The notes beneath the pieces were generated by a model. It saw only the letters and a program-made list of their open reading frames with translations. It was not told the DNA's origin and did no database searches. The position numbers were made by a program, and so were the translations under genes. Shown here one piece after another: positions 22,156-51,118 of a stretch of DNA of 58,453 nt; position 1 is the first letter of the stretch; each line of letters starts with the position of its first letter. This DNA is from an uncultured virus (IMG/VR IMGVR_UViG_3300002835_000037). Its lineage: Duplodnaviria > Heunggongvirae > Uroviricota > Caudoviricetes. The stretch lies in the IMG/VR virus record IMGVR_UViG_3300002835_000037, one strand, 5' to 3'.

Positions 22156-22374
22156 TCTCTATTTAAACATTCTAGTTATAACCTTAACTGGTAAAACTTG
22201 CACTGATTTGCAGGTAATCCTATACTAGATAGGTTCTTGATTCCACGGGTTGACCACCGTGTAATAAATTAAAAGCGTCATATGAAAACAATTTAAATGT
22301 CCTGTAATGGCATCTCAAATTGTAGGTTTATGAGAGTAAGAACACTACAACCTACTGATGATACTACAAAGTAT

Positions 22375-22403
22375 TAGTCCTGAGTAAGACTATAAATTAC
22401 TTT
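22375..22403 (+). ncRNA. Repeated H-type pseudoknot motif, copy 1 (degenerate tail)
   Basis: TAGTC-CTGAGTAA-GACTA-TAAAT-TACTT. Confidence 0.45.
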
Positions 22404-22405
22404 CT

Positions 22406-22539
22406 TTACTGTTAGCAAACAGTGACAAACCTGTGGGGCTACTATTGGGTTCTATATCTCTCCTGCAAAGAGAGTATAGTGCTGACATATCATTTGCAGT
22501 GATATGAATCCAAAGTTAGTGCAGACTCAAAAATCAGGT
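22406..22539 (+). ncRNA. Hatchet self-cleaving ribozyme
   Basis: UUACUGUU/AACAGUGA P1, CAA linker, ACCUG/CAGGU P2, UGGGGCU and UUAGUGCAGAC core strands, A-rich linker; branched P4. Confidence 0.85.
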
Positions 22540-22629
22540 ATTTTACATATAGTATTGATAAAGCTATGTGAGTTTAATTTAAACTAGGCAGTGTTATACA
22601 CGGGAGTAATCCGGCAGTGTGAACCTGTT

Positions 22630-22746
22630 GACCGCAGCAGTAATATGTGGTATGCCATTATCTATTCTCCTCCACAAGATTCCACTTGGGAGAATACAGC
22701 TGACTGAAGTGGAATTCGGTTTAATTCAAATGAAGACTCAGCGGTC
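22630..22746 (+). ncRNA. Unidentified structured RNA with an 8+9 bp pseudoknot
   Basis: GACCGC/GCGGTC closing stem; TATTCTCC/GGAGAATA and ATTCCACTT/AAGTGGAAT. Confidence 0.45.
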
Positions 22747-22883
22747 TAAATGCAGTGTAGGATACTGTATTACATTTGTCTATTACTTTATTAATACTGA
22801 CTAGATCAGTATAACCATTAACAACATTAATCAAGTCCTGTGTACCTAACACAGGCAAGTCCTCACCAATAAATTTATATCTT

Positions 22884-23120
22884 ATGAATTCAACAGCACA
22901 CATTAGAACTCCTAAGCATGTTAATGTATACATGCCTTCTGATAACACTCTTAATCAAGAGTTAATAAAAACATCAGAAAAACTCTTTAAGCAACCATTA
23001 AATGAATTACAAATTATGGAAATTACCAAAATGAGTAAGGAAAATAAAGAATGGTTGCTTCAACAGTATAAACAAGAAGTAAGCTTCATTAAGGAGCCAG
23101 ATCTTTCTAGTTTATATTAA
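22884..23120 (+). CDS. Hypothetical protein between the two ribozymes
   Basis: 78 aa with an AT-rich leader. Confidence 0.6.
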   Translation: MNSTAHIRTPKHVNVYMPSDNTLNQELIKTSEKLFKQPLNELQIMEITKMSKENKEWLLQQYKQEVSFIKEPDLSSLY

Positions 23121-23126
23121 TGATCT

Positions 23127-23153
23127 TTCCTGAGCATGAATAAAAACTGCTCA
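23127..23153 (+). ncRNA. Repeated H-type pseudoknot motif, copy 2
   Basis: TTC-CTGAGCAT-GAA-TAAAAAC-TGCTCA. Confidence 0.5.
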
Positions 23154-23259
23154 TTTAATACATCAACTGTAAATAACTGCCTGGAGGTTTTTGACCTTTG
23201 CACCTTACGCGGTTTACATACAAGTAGTAATACTTGAGGGGGTTGTTGATGTTAAGCAA

Positions 23260-24015
23260 AGTAGTAATGCACCATTCCTGTTTCCCAATTCAAATATATT
23301 TAGTATATTTGTATTATGAAGATTTCTATATACACCTTGACAGATCCTAATACTAATAAAATTAGATATGTAGGACAAACAAATGATCCTAAAAGAAGAT
23401 TGAGTAGACATATAAACAACTCAAGAGCTTTTAAGGATAAAAGACATATCAGTAATTGGATAAGAAGTTTAACTTCTGCTCCAATAATGGATATAATTGA
23501 AGTTTGTGAGTATTCAATTAGAAATAGTAGAGAAAACTATTGGATTGATTACTATAAGAATCAAGGTTATGATTTATGCAACTCTTCTAATGGTGGTGCA
23601 GGTGCTGGTATTGGTAATAAGAATTGTTTAGGAAGAATTATGTCTGATAAAACAAAACAGAAAATAGCTAATGCAAACAAGAATAATACCAATGGATTAG
23701 GCAATAAAGGAGGAAAACCTTCAAAAACAATTTATCAATATGATAAAAATAAAATACCTATTGCTGTTTATAAATCAATACAAGATGCTGTTAAAGCTAC
23801 TGGATATAACAGAACAACAATAAGAAGAAATATTCAAAATATTAGTTCAAGTAAATTATTTATTTGGACTGATAAACCTTTGCTCTAACTCATCCAAGGG
23901 TGAGCAGTTGTAATAATATTGTAGTCCAGATTAGTTACAGTTAAGCACATTAGCTGTAATGAGTGGCAGCAACCGGAGCTGGAAACTATTATTACAACTG
24001 AGTGCAGAGGGTACT
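23260..24015 (+). ncRNA. Twister ribozyme interrupted by a GIY-YIG gene
   Basis: 5' AGUA-G-UAA-UGCA-CC (23260-23273); 3' CUCA-UCCAAGGG-UGAG (23889-23904), 14-bp P5, UGCA-GAGGG-UACU (24003-24015). Confidence 0.65.
23316..23888 (+). CDS. GIY-YIG homing endonuclease with NUMOD-type DNA-binding repeats
   Basis: SIYTL...RYVGQT...RRLSRH, E..WI; C-terminal IYQYD...YKSI..A. Confidence 0.85.
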   Translation: MKISIYTLTDPNTNKIRYVGQTNDPKRRLSRHINNSRAFKDKRHISNWIRSLTSAPIMDIIEVCEYSIRNSRENYWIDYYKNQGYDLCNSSNGGAGAGIGNKNCLGRIMSDKTKQKIANANKNNTNGLGNKGGKPSKTIYQYDKNKIPIAVYKSIQDAVKATGYNRTTIRRNIQNISSSKLFIWTDKPLL

Positions 24016-24058
24016 CAACTTATAGAAACTTAATTAATAATTTAAAAATAAACTCAAA

Positions 24059-24871
24059 ATGAAAATTCATTTACATTCTAAACCAGGGTTATATGAAGTA
24101 GTAACCTATGGTAGAAACAGTATTACTTGTTCTACCAAGCATAGCACATTTCAAGTACCAAGCAGTGATTTTAAATCATTTGCCGGTGGTAGTTGGAACT
24201 TTAGTGTTACCAAAGATCAGATGGATATATTTCTATCTGTTGTTCAACCTGATAAATATAAGATCCAAGTAGAACAAGAAGATCAAATCTTGACATTAGC
24301 TGCTAGATTAGATATCATTCAAGCTGCTGTTAAAGCACAACAAACTGTTGTTGTTGAAGAAGAACCAGAAGCTTATGAAGATGATTATCCTGATGGTAAT
24401 CCACAAGAACCTACCAAAGAAGAATATGAAAAGTGGTGGAGACAAGAATCTGATAAGAATTATGAATTGAACAATAAGATGAGAAATATTGCACGTCAAG
24501 TGTATTCTCAGAATCTTGACTTTACTCATTTTCAGAATCACAAGGGTATTAAATTTATTATACAACAAGATCATTATGATGATAAAATCAACAGATTTTG
24601 TTGGGATCCTTATGGCTTTGTTAGTAATGGTCACAGTGATATCAGTAGTATTTATAGTGAAGGTGATTGGGGTACAATTAATGGTGGTTGGATTAAAATC
24701 ATAGATGATAATGTGATTTTATATGCTAAATCAGGTGATTATGGTGTATATGATGATGCTATTGCCATAGAGTGTGCAAAGAAAATATTTCCTACAAAGA
24801 AAATACATTCATTTGCCGGCAGACAATGGAATGATGAATTAACTTCAAAATTCTCATTGTATTCTTTTTGA
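24059..24871 (+). CDS. Hypothetical protein with a C-terminal Janus/Ocnus (PHPT1)-like domain
   Basis: GIKFII...HSDI...GGWIKI...ILYAKSGDYG...AI...K.IFP. Confidence 0.6.
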   Translation: MKIHLHSKPGLYEVVTYGRNSITCSTKHSTFQVPSSDFKSFAGGSWNFSVTKDQMDIFLSVVQPDKYKIQVEQEDQILTLAARLDIIQAAVKAQQTVVVEEEPEAYEDDYPDGNPQEPTKEEYEKWWRQESDKNYELNNKMRNIARQVYSQNLDFTHFQNHKGIKFIIQQDHYDDKINRFCWDPYGFVSNGHSDISSIYSEGDWGTINGGWIKIIDDNVILYAKSGDYGVYDDAIAIECAKKIFPTKKIHSFAGRQWNDELTSKFSLYSF

Positions 24872-24876
24872 TCTTG

Positions 24877-24904
24877 TATCCTGAGTATGATATTAAACTA
24901 CTCA
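24877..24904 (+). ncRNA. Repeated H-type pseudoknot motif, copy 3
   Basis: TATC-CTGAGTAT-GATA-TTAAAC-TACTCA. Confidence 0.5.
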
Positions 24905-24995
24905 TTTATTATCTCTCTCTATAGTACAATACTAGTTTCCGGGGAATCAATAATAAAACTAAAAATAAATCATTAATCACTTTAAACATTAAACT

Positions 24996-25907
24996 ATGAG
25001 AAACTTAAGTAACAATGGCCTTAGCATGTCACAGGCACAAACTATCAGTAACCTATGTAATCAAAGAGCTACTGAGATTCAAAGAGAGTTAGACTCTTAT
25101 AACAACTGTAGTAAGACTATTACTATAGATGGTAAAACACATCTTGTTGTTGAACCAAGTCCTGTTCCGGGAGATTTTTTAACTAAGCTCAAGCTTAAAG
25201 CTTCTTTGCATGCTTGCCAGGCTTTCCTTATGGAAGCTATTAAGTCTAAAGATGCTGAAATCAAAAGAATCAAACATGCTCAAGTAGATATCTCTCATTT
25301 AGAGATACCTAAAAGAGAATACATTGAAGACTTTGATATACTTGATAATGTGGAAGAATCCTGGGGATGGCAACAGCTCACAGATACTGAATACTCTGAG
25401 TATTTAGATGCTGAAGCAATGGCTGCTCACTTAGGTCAATTCATTCATAAGAATGGTGTATTAAGTAACTTAAGAAAAGAGCTTCCGGGGATCCCAACCA
25501 TTGAGTGGTTTGAGGTAGAAACTGGTAAGAAAACACCAGTTATGGTTACCAAACACCACAACTCTAATCAGCTTATGAATATTCATGAGACTATTGCAAA
25601 AGAGCATAAGATCTATGAGCAACGTGTAAATTATTACAAAGCTAAGGTTAAAAACCTGGTAAGTGATGAGAATGCACGTATTCAAAAGTATAATGCTGAT
25701 AGAGCAGCTGAGCAAATAAAGCTTGAACAAGAAGTTGAAGCTAAATATGAAGTTGCACGAAATGCATATACTGGAGAAGTTGTTAGATTAAAGATGGAGT
25801 TCAATGCTAAAAGAGAACAAGACATCAAAGCTACTGCAGCATTAAGAATTAATGTTGATCCTAGATTTCAGCCTGTAATTGACATGTTCAATACACCTGA
25901 AAACTAG
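24996..25907 (+). CDS. Coiled-coil hypothetical protein upstream of a structured RNA
   Basis: 303 aa, helical and E/K/A-rich. Confidence 0.8.
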   Translation: MRNLSNNGLSMSQAQTISNLCNQRATEIQRELDSYNNCSKTITIDGKTHLVVEPSPVPGDFLTKLKLKASLHACQAFLMEAIKSKDAEIKRIKHAQVDISHLEIPKREYIEDFDILDNVEESWGWQQLTDTEYSEYLDAEAMAAHLGQFIHKNGVLSNLRKELPGIPTIEWFEVETGKKTPVMVTKHHNSNQLMNIHETIAKEHKIYEQRVNYYKAKVKNLVSDENARIQKYNADRAAEQIKLEQEVEAKYEVARNAYTGEVVRLKMEFNAKREQDIKATAALRINVDPRFQPVIDMFNTPEN

Positions 25908-34183: not shown

Positions 34184-34840
34184 ATGAAAACATACATATA
34201 TGTACTTAAACATCCTGAAACTTTTGAAGTAAAGTATGTTGGTAAAACTAATAATATAAAAAGAAGATTTGCTCAACATAAAAGTAAAAAGTGTTTGGAA
34301 AAAACAGGAAGTAAAAAATTAGCTTCTTGGATATTTAAATTATTGTCAAATGATTTACTTCCTATAATGGAAATTATAGAAGAGTGTAATGATAATTGGG
34401 CAGAAAGAGAAAAATATTGGATTTCTTATTACTCTAACACTAACCTATGTAATTTATCAGAGGGTGGTGAAGGAGTAGGTCACAATAATTCTACTAAAAG
34501 TAAAATTAAAAATGCTTTGCTTGGTAGAAAAAGAAGTGATGAAGAAAAACAAGCAATATCTAAAGCAATGATAGGTTTAAAAAGAGGTAAATATTCTACA
34601 TCTAATGGTCATAAAGAAAGATACAAAAACCTTGAAGAAAGAAAAAAACACTCTATTAAACTTAGAAAAAAAGTAGGACAATATGATTTAGAGAACAATT
34701 TGATACAAGAGTTTGAGTCTGCAAGAGAAGCATCAAGACAACTTAATATAGATTGTGGTTCTATTTCTAAATGTTGTAGAAACAAACAAAAACAATGTAG
34801 TGGATTCACTTTTAAATACATAACAAATGAAAATATTTAA
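34184..34840 (+). CDS. Free-standing GIY-YIG homing endonuclease (NUMOD repeats)
   Basis: YIYVL...KYVGKT...RRF.QH; VGQYDL...EFESAREA. Confidence 0.85.
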   Translation: MKTYIYVLKHPETFEVKYVGKTNNIKRRFAQHKSKKCLEKTGSKKLASWIFKLLSNDLLPIMEIIEECNDNWAEREKYWISYYSNTNLCNLSEGGEGVGHNNSTKSKIKNALLGRKRSDEEKQAISKAMIGLKRGKYSTSNGHKERYKNLEERKKHSIKLRKKVGQYDLENNLIQEFESAREASRQLNIDCGSISKCCRNKQKQCSGFTFKYITNENI

Positions 34841-46089: not shown

Positions 46090-46506
46090 ATGAGTAAAAT
46101 AATTTTTGACAAAGAAGAAACAAAGAATCTGATTAATATGCTTAGATCTTCAGATGCTGATAATCATACTATAGCATTTGAAGCATTAAAAAATGTAAAT
46201 ATACAAAAATACATAGGAGAATTAATTGTAATGTATAAGTTTAGCGGTCATTCTAAAAATACTTGGTCTGAACAGTGTCCTAATGTTTTTAAGAAACTTG
46301 AAGAAGTTATAGTTAGTAAAGGAGGTGTATTAGAAAGCCTGACAAGCCCGCAAACATTAGCAGTACTTACAAAAGTAGTAGGATCTTCTAACTCAATTGA
46401 ACTGTTTATGGAGTATTTTGTAAAAAATATGACGAATGTTCTTGAAGGTATAGGTTATCCTATTGATAAATTTGAAATAACCATTAAACTAAAAGACAAT
46501 GGATAA
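46090..46506 (+). CDS. Hypothetical protein
   Basis: 138 aa. Confidence 0.7.
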   Translation: MSKIIFDKEETKNLINMLRSSDADNHTIAFEALKNVNIQKYIGELIVMYKFSGHSKNTWSEQCPNVFKKLEEVIVSKGGVLESLTSPQTLAVLTKVVGSSNSIELFMEYFVKNMTNVLEGIGYPIDKFEITIKLKDNG

Positions 46507-47803
46507 ACAACAAAGTCTTAGTAAAACGAGTAAAGAGCTAATGTTGAAAGAGCCCTATTATGGGTTCTTTCTCATTATGCTTAATAAAATATGGGACAGT
46601 AAAAGAGTTCCTACAGCAGGTGTAAGTAAGAATGGTATTAATTATCAACTTGCTATTAATCCTAGCTTTTGGGAAAGTCTGAATGATAATCATAGACTTG
46701 GATTATTGAAGCATGAATTGCTTCATATTGCATTTGGACATCTTACAACATTCTTTAAGTTTACTGATAAGAAACTTGCAAATGTTGCAATGGATATGGA
46801 AATCAATCAGTATATTGATAAATCTTGGCTTCCGGGCGGAAATTATACTAAAGAAGAGTTTGATACTCTTAAAGCAAGTATAATGTCTGAATTAGAGAAT
46901 GCTAAGCAAAATAATGCTACTGAGGAAGAGTTACAAATTATTGCAAGTAAACTTCCTCCTAGAGGTATTATGATTGAAGATTATGAGGAATTAAATCTTG
47001 ACTTAAAAGCTGGCTCTAGATACTACTATGATAAACTAAAGCAACTTCAGGACAAAAAAGATCAAGAAGGTAGTTCTGGAAGTTCAGCAATGGACCAACT
47101 TCTTGATGACATAGCAAACGGTGATGTTCCTGATCATAGCACATGGGATGAGTTTGAAAACATTACAGAAGCAGAACAAAAACTGATTGACAAGCAATTG
47201 CAGAAAGTTTTATCCGATGCTAAAGAGCAAACTGTAAAGAAAAGAGGAACAGTCCCTGGTGAAATAGAAGGTGTTATCATTATAGAGGAGATTGTTCCTC
47301 CAAAATTTGACTGGAGAGGTTTTATCAGAAGATTTACAGGAGTAAGTACTAAAGTGTTTACTAAGAAAATCAGAAGAAAAGAAAACCGTAGGTTTGAAGC
47401 TAATCCCGGTCTTAAAGTAAAAATGAGACAACATATGTTGTTAGCCATTGATACTTCAGGATCTGTAAGTGATGATGAGCTTAAAGAATTTATGAGTGAA
47501 ATCTACCATATTTACAAGTGTGGTGTTGATATTACTATTGTACAATGTGATACAAGAATCAGATCAATTGAACCTTACAAAGGTAAATTTGAAATGGTAG
47601 TGCAAGGTAGGGGAGGAACTGAGTTTGACCCTGTCCTAGAGTATTTTAATGAAAACCAAAAGAAATATACTAGCCTGGTATATTTTACTGACGGTGAATG
47701 TTGGACACATGTAAAACCAAAAGGAAATGTTCTTTGGGTTATATCCGAAAGATCACAAATGAATAATGATCTTCCTGGAAAAGTTATTAAATTAGAATTA
47801 TAA
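46499..47803 (+). CDS. Metallopeptidase-like (HExxH) + vWA domain protein (DUF2201-type)
   Basis: KHELLH; DTSGS MIDAS; GRGGTEF; YFTDG. Confidence 0.85.
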   Translation: MDKQQSLSKTSKELMLKEPYYGFFLIMLNKIWDSKRVPTAGVSKNGINYQLAINPSFWESLNDNHRLGLLKHELLHIAFGHLTTFFKFTDKKLANVAMDMEINQYIDKSWLPGGNYTKEEFDTLKASIMSELENAKQNNATEEELQIIASKLPPRGIMIEDYEELNLDLKAGSRYYYDKLKQLQDKKDQEGSSGSSAMDQLLDDIANGDVPDHSTWDEFENITEAEQKLIDKQLQKVLSDAKEQTVKKRGTVPGEIEGVIIIEEIVPPKFDWRGFIRRFTGVSTKVFTKKIRRKENRRFEANPGLKVKMRQHMLLAIDTSGSVSDDELKEFMSEIYHIYKCGVDITIVQCDTRIRSIEPYKGKFEMVVQGRGGTEFDPVLEYFNENQKKYTSLVYFTDGECWTHVKPKGNVLWVISERSQMNNDLPGKVIKLEL

Positions 47804-47814
47804 AAAAAAGAAGT

Positions 47815-50800
47815 ATGAGTCAAGTACAATTAAACGTTGAAGAGTTAAAGGATTTTATTAAGCATATGGTTAAGAATAACCAACACATTCAGTCTGAAGG
47901 AAAAGTTCCTGTGGCAGTGAACATTGAAGGTGATGCTGGGCTTAATTCAAAATAAATGAGTATATTTGTAACATGAAGAAATTAATTTCAGAGTGTTTAC
48001 ACAAAGACTTAAATCAAAAGTGTGGTATTTACAAACTTACTTGTAATGAGCACAGTTATATTGGTAGCAGTATTAATATTTATTATAGGTTGAAAAGACA
48101 TATATCAGATTTGCTAAAAAATAAGCATGCAAATAAGTATATGCAAAATGCTTTTAATAAATATGGAAAGGATAGTTTTATATTTGAAGTAATAGAAGAA
48201 TGTAATAGAGATGTGTTAATTAAAACAGAATCCTATTATATAGAATCTATGTCTCCGGACTTAAACTTTATTCAAAATCCTGTTGCAATGATCCACAGTA
48301 ATGAAACATTACTTAGGATTTCTGCAACATTAAAAGAAGCTTATGCTTCTAAAAGAATAAAAAATCCTATTTCTAAAACTGTTCATCAATATAATATAAA
48401 TGGTTTTTATCTTAAATCTTATGAATCCTGTGCTGAAGCAGAAAAACAATTGAACTTACCAAAAGGAAAAGTTTCAAGAGTAGCTTCAGGAAAAGGATTT
48501 TCTTGTAAAAACTATAGATGGAGTTATGAATTAAAAAATAAACTTGGAGAATCTGTTATTAAACCAGATACAACAAAAAAAGTTTATGTATATGATGAGA
48601 ACAACAACTTAGTTCAAGAATGGCAAAGAGTGGGTAATGTAGCTAGTAATCTAGGTATTAGCTCATCTGCAATGTCTACAAGAATTAAAAAAGGTAATTA
48701 CTATGATGGTTTAAGATATTCATTTAACCCAGGTCCAGGGTAAAAATTGGGTGAATTGCTGGGAGTTCCTAAAGCTTTGTTAGCTACAACATAACCGGAA
48801 ATGGTAAGTGTGAATGCTTGAAAATAACAAAGATGTCCTAATGGATAATCAGCAGCCAAGTCTAGATCTAAATGGTCTGGAAAGGTTCAACGACTAGGTA
48901 TTGAAACTATGTAAATAGAATATAATATACCCAAGAGTGCCCAACACCAAGTAATTGGTGAAGATATAGTCTGAACTATAGTGAAAGCTATAGAAACAAG
49001 GATAAAGAGCCTTGTGATAACAAAATGTGGAAAAACAAGTGCAATTATGCAGTTGGGTAAAGAATTGCAAATGGATGTTGTAAAGTTGAATTTATCTCAA
49101 CTTGAAGAATTAGGTGACTTAGTTGGGTTTCCTGTAAAAGAATTTCAGATACAAAATGCAGAAGGTAAAACTACCTGGATTAATGAATCTCAGATATCTG
49201 CAGCTAGTGCGAAAGGTTATAAGGTTGTTGGAAAAAGAATGTCACATGCTGCTCCTGAATGGATTCAGGGTAAAGGTGAAGGTGGTTTCTTAATCTTAGA
49301 TGACTATACTCGTGCGGATTAACAAAATATGCAGTCTAGTAGTGTTAGTGTGAATAATTTAATTATCTTTGTGATATGGAAAAATTAAACACACAAACTC
49401 TTAAGACCGCATTAAAGAGTATAGGAATCTATAAAATTAAAATTAATGATAAAGAGTACATTGGTAGCTCTTGTAATATTGGTCAAAGATTAAAACATCA
49501 TTTATGGTCTCTTGAAAATTTAAAACACCATAATAGAACAATGCAGAATTTATACAACAAGTATAGTAAAGAAGAAATTTACTTTGAAGTTGTAGAAGAG
49601 TGTTCAGATGAAGTTTTAATTGAGAGAGAAGCTTATTATATTAGCACACTTAATCCATATATAAATCATATACTAGATCCACAAACTCTAGTCAGGGATG
49701 ATGTATGTAAACAAAGGATAAGTGATACTAAGAAAAAAGCTTATGCAAATGGTCTAAAACCTCACAATCTTAAAGCAGTACATAAATATTCACTTGATAA
49801 AGGTGAGTATTTAGAAAGTTTTGATTCTCTTACAGCTGCTGCTAAATCTATTAATGCTAAAAGTATTAATAGTATAAAAGCAGTATGTAATAGTAAGCAA
49901 ACTTCTGCAGGAGGTTATGTTTGGTCTTATAATAAAGTTAATCTAGTTTTTTCTAGAGATAAAAAATATAAGTTAGAACCAGTGTTACAATTTACTATTG
50001 ATAATATTTTTATCAAAAAATGGGAGTCTATAACTGAAGCAAGTAAAGAACTTGGTATCTCTAATATTAATAGAGCAATATCTAGAAATTTAACTGCTGG
50101 GGGTTATAGATGGTCTAAAAAGCATAAAGTGTTTGGTCCGCAATAAATCATGTGAATTCAGGGAAACTCCAGAGATGGACAATCCTGAGCCAAGCCTTAT
50201 AGGGATATAAGGAAGGTGCAACGACTAGTGTATGGAGTCTAGAACAGACAGTAAAACACCAAGAGCGCATGACACATAGAAATATGTGATGATATAGTCT
50301 GAACTGTACATATAATCTAAATGAAAGTACAGAATCTAAGGATAAAGAGCCTTAGAGTTAACAAAATGCAACGCTTTATGCAAGCAACAATGGAGATCCT
50401 AGACAGACAAGAATATGTTTCTTGGAAGTTACCAAAGAACTGGCATGTACTTTTGACTACTAATCCAGACAATGGTGATTACAATGTAACTTCTCTGGAT
50501 GTAGCTCAGAAGACTAGATTTATCTCTGTAGAGTTAAAGTATGATTCTGATGTATGGGCTAAGTGGGCAGAGAAAGCAAGTATTGATGGTAGATGTATTA
50601 ACTTTATGTTGATGCATCCAGAATTGGTAACTCAAAGAGTTAATCCAAGATCTATCACTACATTCTTTAATGCAATTAGTTCTATTCCAAAGTTTGAAGA
50701 TAACTTACCTTTAATTCAAATGATTGGTGAGGGATCTGTTGGACCTGATTTTAGTTCTATGTTTACTATGTTCATTAATAACAAACTTGATAGAATTATT

Positions 50801-51118
50801 AGTCCGGAAGATATCCTAAATAAAGATGAGCAATATGTAATGAACTCTTTAACTAATGCAGTTGGTAAAGATGATGATTTCCGTGCTGATATTTCAAGTA
50901 TTATTGCAACAAGGTTGATTAACTATTCTCTTACTTTAGCTGAAAAAGGATCTGTGGGTAAACCAGTTATTGATAGAATAGCTAAACTTACTACTGATTG
51001 TGATGCATTTACAAATGACCTTAGATATTATATGGTTAAGGAGATTGTCAATGGAAACAAGGTTAAATTTAGCTCATTAATGCTAAATTCAGAGGTGGTG
51101 AAGATGGCTGTCAAGTAA
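47815..51118 (+). CDS. MoxR-like AAA+ ATPase in three exons (47815-47942, 49028-49319, 50369-51118; 389 aa spliced)
   Basis: Splicing restores Walker A GDAGL|GKTS and ILDDYTRAD|QRFMQ; partner vWA gene upstream. Confidence 0.85.
47943..49027 (+). mobile_element. Group I intron 1 (in Walker A)
   Basis: P AATTGCTGGGA, Q AATCAGCAGC, R GTTCAACGACTAG, S AAGATATAGTCT; exon ends in U, intron ends in G. Confidence 0.88.
47973..48743 (+). CDS. Intron-encoded GIY-YIG homing endonuclease
   Basis: GIYKL...YIGSS.NI..R...H. Confidence 0.88.
   Translation: MKKLISECLHKDLNQKCGIYKLTCNEHSYIGSSINIYYRLKRHISDLLKNKHANKYMQNAFNKYGKDSFIFEVIEECNRDVLIKTESYYIESMSPDLNFIQNPVAMIHSNETLLRISATLKEAYASKRIKNPISKTVHQYNINGFYLKSYESCAEAEKQLNLPKGKVSRVASGKGFSCKNYRWSYELKNKLGESVIKPDTTKKVYVYDENNNLVQEWQRVGNVASNLGISSSAMSTRIKKGNYYDGLRYSFNPGPG
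49320..50368 (+). mobile_element. Group I intron 2 (just after Walker B)
   Basis: P AATTCAGGGAA, Q AATCCTGAGC, R GTGCAACGACTAG, S ATGATATAGTCT; U/G boundaries restore the frame. Confidence 0.88.
49376..50146 (+). CDS. Intron-encoded GIY-YIG homing endonuclease
   Basis: GIYKI...YIGSS.NI..R..HH. Confidence 0.88.
   Translation: MEKLNTQTLKTALKSIGIYKIKINDKEYIGSSCNIGQRLKHHLWSLENLKHHNRTMQNLYNKYSKEEIYFEVVEECSDEVLIEREAYYISTLNPYINHILDPQTLVRDDVCKQRISDTKKKAYANGLKPHNLKAVHKYSLDKGEYLESFDSLTAAAKSINAKSINSIKAVCNSKQTSAGGYVWSYNKVNLVFSRDKKYKLEPVLQFTIDNIFIKKWESITEASKELGISNINRAISRNLTAGGYRWSKKHKVFGPQ

Follow-up and report, generated by a model that had tools for sequence, protein, structure and literature searches.

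A GIY-YIG homing endonuclease gene within a twister-type RNA element of an uncultured lake phage

In the DNA of an uncultured virus (IMG/VR record IMGVR_UViG_3300002835_000037; 58,453 nucleotides (nt), hereafter the window), a gene of the GIY-YIG family is found between two short sequences that together resemble a twister ribozyme (positions 23,260 to 24,015). This locus raises the question of how a homing endonuclease gene came to lie within such an RNA gene, whether the RNA is a twister, and whether it can still cleave itself when its halves are so far apart. Among the known targets of homing endonuclease genes are conserved sites in protein and rRNA genes and the insertion sites of introns; such genes also shelter in self-splicing introns and inteins. 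The preliminary description of the locus knew of no described case inside a small self-cleaving ribozyme, and a literature search, outside which most subscription journals lay, likewise found no natural example. The explanation favoured here, with somewhat better than even confidence, is that one copy of a widespread twister-type RNA element was invaded by a GIY-YIG/NUMOD1 gene that spreads by homing, and that the ribozyme is impaired.

All parts of the split element are on the plus strand. The intact 5' strand (23260..23273) consists of AGUA of stem P1 (23260-23263), a G (23264), U23265/A23266 (the cut site predicted by sequence match) followed by A23267, UGCA of stem P2 (23268-23271), and CC (23272-23273), a candidate partner in pseudoknot T2. 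Next comes a remnant of the recipient element (23274..23288) comprising loop L2 (AUU), CCUGU as the 5' strand of P4, and seven bases, UUCCCAA, from the start of loop L4; this P4 strand is an orphan, its partner ACAGG being gone from the window. The endonuclease cassette begins with a conserved leader (23289..23315) that has TATATTTG, a putative promoter, immediately before the ATG. The open reading frame (ORF; 23316..23888) is intact, and its last codons and stop codon (23875..23888) are at the same time a second, degenerate copy of the 5' part of the twister, as recognized by alignment with L141 and L099/L151 (L numbers denote individual loci). The second copy in L141 is nearly intact (CCTAATGCAC, TAA, CTCA, then the loop), and that of the window is decayed (CCTTTGCTC, TAA, CTCA). 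It leads into a donor-type local hairpin P4' (23889..23904) with the stem CUCA/UGAG (23889-23892/23901-23904) and a loop, L4' (UCCAAGGG), that departs from the family consensus UUCCCAAGG. Stem P5 (23905..24000) has a 14-base-pair (bp) base (23905-23918/23987-24000) and a variable distal part. The 3' strand (24001..24015) consists of AG, UGCA of P2 (24003-24006), GAGGG (24007-24011), and UACU of P1 (24012-24015); by sequence match, GAGGG contains the partner of pseudoknot T1 and the candidate catalytic G. CCAA flanks the ORF on both sides (23285-23288 and 23894-23897).

The arrangement thus agrees with the preliminary description in the placement of the 5' half before the GIY-YIG ORF and of the 3' half from the stop codon onward, as well as in P4, the 14-bp P5, UGCA-GAGGG-UACU and the paired CCAA. 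Its statement that both pseudoknots are satisfied holds for the complementarity of UCC with GGG and of CC with GG, but L4' lacks one C of T1, for which it offers only CC and a possible U.G pair. When the two halves are joined, the minimum free energy (MFE) structure consists of P1, P2, P4 and P5, and these four stems form together only in the joined sequence.

The interrupting gene encodes a free-standing protein of 190 amino acids, with matches to Pfam PF01541 (GIY-YIG; E value 2.8e-10, 40.8 bits, cutoff 22.6) and PF07453 (NUMOD1; E value 3.9e-5, 24.2 bits, cutoff 22.8), and to PHROG 314 and 5123, both annotated as homing endonuclease. Its relatives at 53-100% identity are open frames as well. 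A sequence search of the PDB returned no meaningful match, and tblastn against phage records returned distant matches only (28-41% identity). The features of the locus indicate that an intact homing endonuclease gene interrupts a ribozyme-like RNA gene.

Viral contigs were searched with the 270-amino-acid protein encoded directly downstream of the element, giving a syntenic set of 17 loci in which three states of the site are found. An intact element precedes the downstream gene in L003, L004/L005, L007, L008, L009/L010 and L012; the element is split in the window, L001 and L002; and L006 has the same neighbourhood without any element. L003, L004 and L009 match the flanks of the window without positions 23289-23893: L009 aligns to 23262-23288 and resumes at 23991, and L004 aligns to 23894-23918 and from 23990 onward. 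A contig from the lake DNA sequencing run X10 tracks the window to position 23288 and continues with GGACAGGCAGTTGT, an uninterrupted allele in which P4 is CCUGU/ACAGG, so that the CTGT before the ORF is the recipient's own P4 strand. The empty alleles that the preliminary description proposed to look for are therefore abundant (six distinct syntenic alleles, uninterrupted members of the family at other loci and the X10 contig). They correct its placement of the insertion in the variable stem P3: at the DNA level the insertion point is in loop L4, after CCCAA (23288|23289), with a cassette of approximately 23289-23897 and a partial duplication of the ribozyme, and only the topology of the RNA resembles that of a P3 or L2 insert.

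The same junction is occupied in unrelated surroundings. In each of five other loci, an endonuclease gene (53-92% alike) is present at the window's junction in a family element, and the encoded endonuclease has 90% (L150), 73% (L141), 63% (L151), 54% (L152) or 53% (L153) protein identity to that of the window. The similarity of these loci to the window starts at 23262-23265 and stops by about 23915-23924, inside P5, apart from a 22-nt 3' core; their flanks have no match to the window beyond the element and the gene, and the upstream proteins of L141 have no match in the window. The upstream P4 strand is specific to each locus (CCTGT, CTCAC, CTCAT, CCTAC or CCGGT), and the downstream P4' and L4' and the leader travel with the gene across the invaded loci. 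The leader after CCCAA is nearly identical in L141, L150 and L151, and its ATG-proximal part is also present in L152 and L153; L150 and L099 have the same P4' and L4' as the window, and L141 and L151-L153 have variants of them. This pattern is the mark expected of co-conversion during double-strand-break repair. An association between family elements and GIY-YIG genes is also seen in L147, which has two such genes (approximately 33% identical to the window gene) in tandem within family elements, one of them in a conserved P4 extension; a complete element begins at the stop codon, and a partial 5' copy is located upstream. In L147 (685-2165), a partial 5' copy comes first, then the first GIY-YIG gene, a complete element whose P5 is short, the second GIY-YIG gene and a second element. 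More distant relatives (L142/L155, L143/L157, L154 and L156; at most 33% identity) have no family element adjoining. The sequence TAATGCACT that ends the distant endonuclease gene of L143 was dismissed as a coincidence, no element being present after it. A cleavage-site motif of the I-TevI style upstream of the insertion was also considered and rejected; because the sequence upstream of the insertion varies between loci, no claim is made as to the cut site.

Presence/absence polymorphism together with one junction recurring in unrelated surroundings forms the signature of homing. The preliminary description left it open whether the endonuclease homes into the ribozyme or is regulated by it. 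Homing into the ribozyme is the best reading because empty alleles are abundant and the junction recurs in unrelated contexts; nothing in the data shows regulation. A twister-type RNA gene has thus been invaded by a homing endonuclease gene, for which it is very probably a homing target. In the process envisaged, the enzyme would cut uninterrupted copies of the element, and double-strand-break repair would copy the cassette in, with the conserved ribozyme halves serving as short homology arms. In this manner the gene may move between copies of the element beside unrelated genes in different phages. At the 3' end of the cassette is the degenerate 5' copy, which provides the last ORF codons, the stop codon and a new local P4 hairpin. 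Behind the endonuclease ORF, the 3' module would persist in the form of a stable three-way hairpin.

A very improbable alternative is that no homing takes place and the twister-like RNA travels as part of an endonuclease cassette, for example as a 3' processing or stabilizing signal. In its favour, the segment common to the non-syntenic invaded loci runs from the 5' half through the gene and P4' into the beginning of P5, and in all lineages the end of the ORF falls within a copy of the element. However, among the family loci examined, four contigs besides the window carry such an endonuclease gene and more than 100 copies of the element are without one; syntenic relatives possess an intact element without the gene; and the invaded loci have different P5 and P1 stems and different upstream P4 strands, those of the window matching the local uninterrupted alleles.

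The element that was invaded belongs to a large family. Its 18-nt 3' core, ACAACTGAGTGCAGAGGG, is present at no fewer than 121 loci in a scan of viral contigs; in the window it occurs once even when up to three mismatches are allowed (shuffled sequences give an expectation of 0.00), and TAATGCACC of the 5' strand also occurs exactly once. Neither TAATGCACC nor CCAAGG was included in the pattern searched for; both are found without change in 92 distinct elements among the matches listed plus the syntenic loci. The family layout is P1, U^AA (the caret marking the predicted cut), a 4-bp P2, CC, P4 with the loop UUCCCAAGG, a long P5, AG, the 3' strand of P2 (P2'), GAGGG, and the 3' strand of P1 (P1'). 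In uninterrupted copies, this takes the form of TAATGCACC, three or four bases, a 4-5-bp stem with the loop TTCCCAAGG, a helix starting with CAGTTGTA, AG, TGCA and GAGGG(G). A script sorted 118 distinct 5' regions into 70 that are compact and canonical, 28 with the canonical loop in another upstream arrangement, and 20 that are endonuclease-linked, decayed or 3'-only. Most of the 28 contain a conserved, structured insertion, 87-263 nt long, that separates the P4 5' strand from L4. Inserts of this size and position were noted in 18 distinct members (L064, L132, L125, L059, L118, L094, L087, L026 and others), where a conserved module (GTGGATATAAAGACTTCTTAG ... CTAAGATGTGAAACCAC) precedes a second hairpin.

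Covariation was assessed in an alignment of 36 compact uninterrupted members. Compensatory changes affect all five pairs of P4, in which 98.9% of cells are paired, and all five pairs of P1 are altered on both sides, with 68.9% of cells paired. The base of P5 is invariant and three of its distal pairs covary; P2 is an invariant helix of 4 bp, and U^AA and GAGGG are invariant. The covariation score of the whole structure is 0.250, compared to a shuffled mean of 0.106 (none of 500 shuffles scored as high) and to 0.028-0.074 when the partners are slid. T1 is complementary in 36 of 36 members, without variation. T2 in the family is CC with GG, which is complementary and represents a compensatory change relative to GC/GC; a scan of viral contigs for T2 variants with a first base other than C found two loci, both with U (a U.G pair).

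A sequence profile built from the 36 uninterrupted relatives recognizes the rejoined element of the window. Removal of 23289-23897 by script gives 75.2 bits over the full length of the profile, and the deletion suggested in the preliminary description (23274-23887) gives 54.1 bits, also over the full length. The local downstream copy alone scores 47.2 bits, from profile position 30 only. Natural members that were left out of the profile score 57-76 bits over the full length, and 200 shuffles score at most 0.6 bits. The number of loci, the unchanged motifs outside the search pattern and the covariation indicate that the twister-like family is real and acts as RNA.

Assignment of this family to the twister class is less straightforward. 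According to the available part of PMC5408937, stems P1, P2 (four pairs) and P4 are essential to the twister core and P3 and P5 are optional; the scissile U-A step adjoins P1, and bases of L1 and L4 are conserved. T1 is described there as three pairs between L4 and L1, and T2 as the pairing of a conserved GC of L2 with two bulged bases of L4; P4 is extended by a near-invariant G-C pair and a U.A pair around the T1 bases. In the family, P1, P2 and P4 are present in the order of the twister consensus, together with P5, but the near-invariant G-C pair that extends P4 is not found: the pair that closes L4 is C-G in 32 of 36 members, A-U in three and U-A in one, and L4 has one extra U. Compared to twister type P1 (RF03160), as far as the accessible account of it extends, the family is alike in P1, the U^AA internal loop, the 4-bp P2, the P4 loop of UCCCAA type and the GAGGG 3' strand, in the complementarity of both pseudoknots, in the optional P5, and in a phage intergenic location adjoining other self-cleaving ribozymes. 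It differs in T2 (CC/GG instead of the conserved GC/GC), in the extra U of L4 and a closing pair other than the near-invariant G-C, and in always having a long P5 and never P3.

The curated models also set the family apart. In the window, Rfam reported no twister, either at its gathering threshold or at E values up to 10 over the unjoined sequence 23150-24100; none at the gathering threshold in the 17 syntenic and 20 further loci; and, with the models twister-P1, -P3 and -P5, none at E values up to 10 in 22 uninterrupted loci (L003 and L007 whole, L003:2470-2630 and 20 compact members). The designation of the element as a twister in the preliminary description is consequently corrected to twister-like: the core anatomy agrees, but the Rfam twister models miss even the uninterrupted alleles. 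The preliminary description would take a failure of the joined halves to score as twister as a refutation; in spirit, the Rfam result on the uninterrupted alleles goes in that direction, whereas the family profile recognizes the joined halves (54.1-75.2 bits). The family is therefore described as twister-type by anatomy and outside the curated twister models, with a putative cleavage activity.

A quite unlikely alternative is that the family is a conserved structured leader or processing signal, such as a protein-binding or RNase site, and that the endonuclease targets conserved non-coding DNA. The blank result with Rfam at the 22 uninterrupted loci, the closing pair of L4, its extra U and the CC/GG form of T2 would be in keeping with this, as would the copies of the 3'-only and closed-helix kinds, which keep the 18-nt core without L1 or L4. 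Against it, U^AA, the 4-bp P2, UCCCAA, the T2 bases and GAGGG fit the twister core in order, spacing and identity as it is given in the available part of PMC5408937, and the change in T2 is compensatory. The unpaired loop bases are invariant in the 92 elements and the stems covary, which is typical of a catalytic core. The elements also adjoin Hatchet ribozymes, and clustering of this kind has been reported for self-cleaving ribozymes: in the available part of PMC10085705, bacterial twister and hammerhead ribozymes cluster near one another and near phage genes. The same part of that source reports no good candidates from searches for new twister permutations.

The Hatchet ribozyme of the window (22402-22539, plus strand) scores 77.7 bits in Rfam (gathering score 51) and is located approximately 720 nt upstream of the 5' half. 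Further Hatchet matches lie upstream of the element in L001, L002, L004, L005, L006, L009, L010 and L032. A 111-nt contig from an RNA library falls on the Hatchet element, which is no proof of transcription.

With respect to activity, the split ribozyme is probably impaired, such that cleavage at U23265/A23266 is lost or strongly reduced. Loss or reduction of self-cleavage is expected because the 5' strand is 615 nt upstream, because L4' lacks one C, and because the decayed copy forms a local helix. In the predicted fold of 23866-24020, CCUUUGC of the decayed copy (23877-23883) pairs with 24004-24010, giving an MFE of -52.1 kcal/mol (z score -4.17; none of 200 shuffles folds as well). This decoy pairing is also part of the MFE structure of the 768-nt RNA; for the joined halves, the MFE is no lower than -48.0 kcal/mol. 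None of the six invaded lineages has the consensus (U)UCCCAAGG in its downstream L4', L151 alone keeping the CCC run, and GAGGG is altered in three of the six (GAGGA, GAGTG and GATGGG); mutations of GAGGG, L4 or both are found in L151, L152 and L153. The consensus core is present in six of six distinct uninterrupted alleles found via the neighbouring gene. Conservation of the upstream 5' strand in invaded copies can be explained without selection because each recipient supplies that strand. As a speculation, the degenerate downstream copy may keep the invaded allele from rebuilding the target of the enzyme and so confer self-immunity.

An alternative that is judged improbable, yet not negligible, is that a discontinuous ribozyme functions across the gene: after transcription of the ORF, the distant 5' strand would dock on P4', P5 and the 3' strand and be cut at U23265/A23266. 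The endonuclease message would then occupy a tolerated position like that of L2 or P3, and its 5' end would be made by the ribozyme. Consistent with this, the joined halves fold as P1, P2, P4 and P5, the candidate catalytic bases and both complementarities (UCC/GGG and CC/GG) are all present, and the cassette brings a complete local P4 hairpin, so that one strand alone has to come from afar. The 18 members with large inserts tolerate 87-263 nt of structure in the P4/L4 region, and TAATGCACC and GAGGG are retained in the window, L150 and L141. In the high-throughput assay described in the available part of PMC11662667, L2 length was uncorrelated with cleavage, but pseudoknots and catalytic residues were among the least tolerant parts, and L4' is without one C of T1. 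Prediction also gives the decoy helix greater stability than the twister secondary structure, and it would form first as the RNA is transcribed; the core mutations of L151-L153 are those expected without selection to cleave; and the conservation of the 5' strand follows from its recipient origin. An extension of the same idea, in which the cut creates the 5' end of the endonuclease message and the halves double as portable homology arms among the more than 100 copies, is similarly doubtful. If true, it would be the small-ribozyme counterpart of a twin-ribozyme intron, and a true home for a homing endonuclease gene.

Several observations nevertheless weigh against the explanation favoured above, that of homing with impairment of a twister-type ribozyme. 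The three lineages closest to the window keep GAGGG, and the window keeps all candidate catalytic bases and the P1 and P2 complementarity across the insert; twisters also tolerate many imperfections and L2 insertions in the assay of PMC11662667, as far as the part available goes. For these reasons some residual self-cleavage of the split copy is conceivable, if unlikely. The covariation is silent on the pseudoknots because T1, T2 and P2 are invariant in the sample, and the term twister-type refers to anatomy because no Rfam twister model scores any member. Copies of other kinds also have to be accommodated. The 3'-only copies (L032, L035/L137, L100 and L117) keep P5 and the 18-nt core, and no 5' half was found within the available flanking DNA of L032, L035, L100 and L117. 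In the closed-helix copies (L029, twice, and L037), CCCTTTGCAC can pair along its whole length with TGCAGAGGG, and there is no pseudoknot loop. Both kinds of copy suggest a 3' module able to persist, or to function, in the absence of ribozyme chemistry, which the favoured explanation does not account for. L074 was grouped with them among would-be non-cleaving forms.

Contigs from two metatranscriptome runs match the locus and its relatives: besides the one on the Hatchet element, one of 234 nt is located inside the ORF (23448-23681), and others derive from other family members. Such contigs show neither ends nor strand and may reflect carry-over of DNA, and they are not used as evidence of transcription or cleavage.

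The locus shares some aspects with several known systems. GIY-YIG genes in the loops of phage group I introns, such as that of I-TevI, likewise combine a GIY-YIG domain with a small DNA-binding module, lie within the gene of a catalytic RNA, and are selfish genes polymorphic for presence and absence. In contrast to these, the host of the window gene is a non-coding intergenic RNA rather than an intron in a gene, part of the ribozyme is duplicated, and the inserted gene never leaves the RNA because a twister does not splice. The free-standing Seg and Mob endonucleases of T4-like phages, which carry out intronless homing, are comparable in that an intergenic GIY-YIG gene with its own short leader spreads by double-strand-break repair with co-conversion of the flanks; the target here, however, is a dispersed multicopy RNA element beside unrelated genes, and homology would come from the conserved RNA core rather than from flanking genes. 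In the twin-ribozyme intron of Didymium, the cut site of a small ribozyme is directly upstream of a homing endonuclease ORF (I-DirI), and here too a ribozyme cut could set the 5' end of the message; the lariat-capping ribozyme of Didymium, whose function is established, belongs to a group I intron that splices, whereas the window has no intron at this site and cleavage is only predicted. Discontinuous hammerheads in the 3' untranslated regions of mammalian Clec2 genes also have halves several hundred nucleotides apart, but they are of another ribozyme class, the insert is not a mobile gene, and their activity has been shown. Lastly, Penelope-like retroelements combine a GIY-YIG domain and small self-cleaving ribozymes (hammerhead motifs) in one mobile element, according to the available part of PMC4209133; as described there, they are eukaryotic retroelements in which the ribozyme is in the element's own repeats and is not a split target.

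The apparent target of the endonuclease is the invariant core of an RNA of the small self-cleaving type, with more than 100 dispersed copies in lake phages. A target dispersed in this way would offer a selfish gene many landing sites, both within and between genomes. The invaded copies, which decay at L4 and GAGGG, amount to a natural experiment on which features of the twister core are dispensable. Near-collinear phages with no element, an intact element or a split element similarly provide a natural experiment on the role of self-cleaving ribozymes in phages, and the family as a whole is a large twister-type group that current Rfam models miss.

Genes for a terminase, a portal, a head protein and a DNA polymerase identify the window as tailed-phage DNA, which according to the sequencing-run records came from lake water, and blastn of positions 22300-25000 against cultured and deposited phages returned no match. 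Other endonuclease genes are present in this genome. Two group I introns recognized by Rfam (48701-48993 and 50086-50315) are each overlapped at the 5' end by a GIY-YIG ORF (47973-48743 and 49376-50146, respectively); with an HNH ORF (46499-47803), the region 46499-51118 is rich in endonucleases, and a further GIY-YIG ORF is found at 34184-34840.

Other small RNA-like features were noted near members of the family. A hammerhead-like core in L147 (CTGATGAG ... CGAAAC), after the second element, was set aside as below the Rfam gathering score. In L096, a sub-threshold match to Pistol (1226-1283; 25.4 bits, gathering score 34.5) is approximately 150 nt upstream of a compact member. A recurring hairpin, CAAGGGTTGCAACCTTGTGAGAGTAC, is located shortly upstream of the element in L004 (approximately 2721-2747), L009 (2754-2780), L012 (2655-2681) and L008 (2485-2511), these positions all being approximate, and directly before the gene leader in L006 (approximately 2012-2038), where the element is absent. 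Another hairpin, CCTGAGCATG...AAACTGCTC(A), is found in the window (23129-23153) and in L008, L054, L089, L116, L069 and L108; in several unrelated loci a distance of 60-110 nt separates it from the 5' half downstream. It may represent a terminator or a further small RNA module. A direct repeat, AAGTAGTAAT, occurs twice in the window (23222-23243 and 23259-23268), the upstream copy being followed by CTTGAGGGGG, and may be a P0-like hairpin or a remnant. A similar module, TTGAGGGGG...TAAGCAAAGT, precedes the element in L018 and L091.

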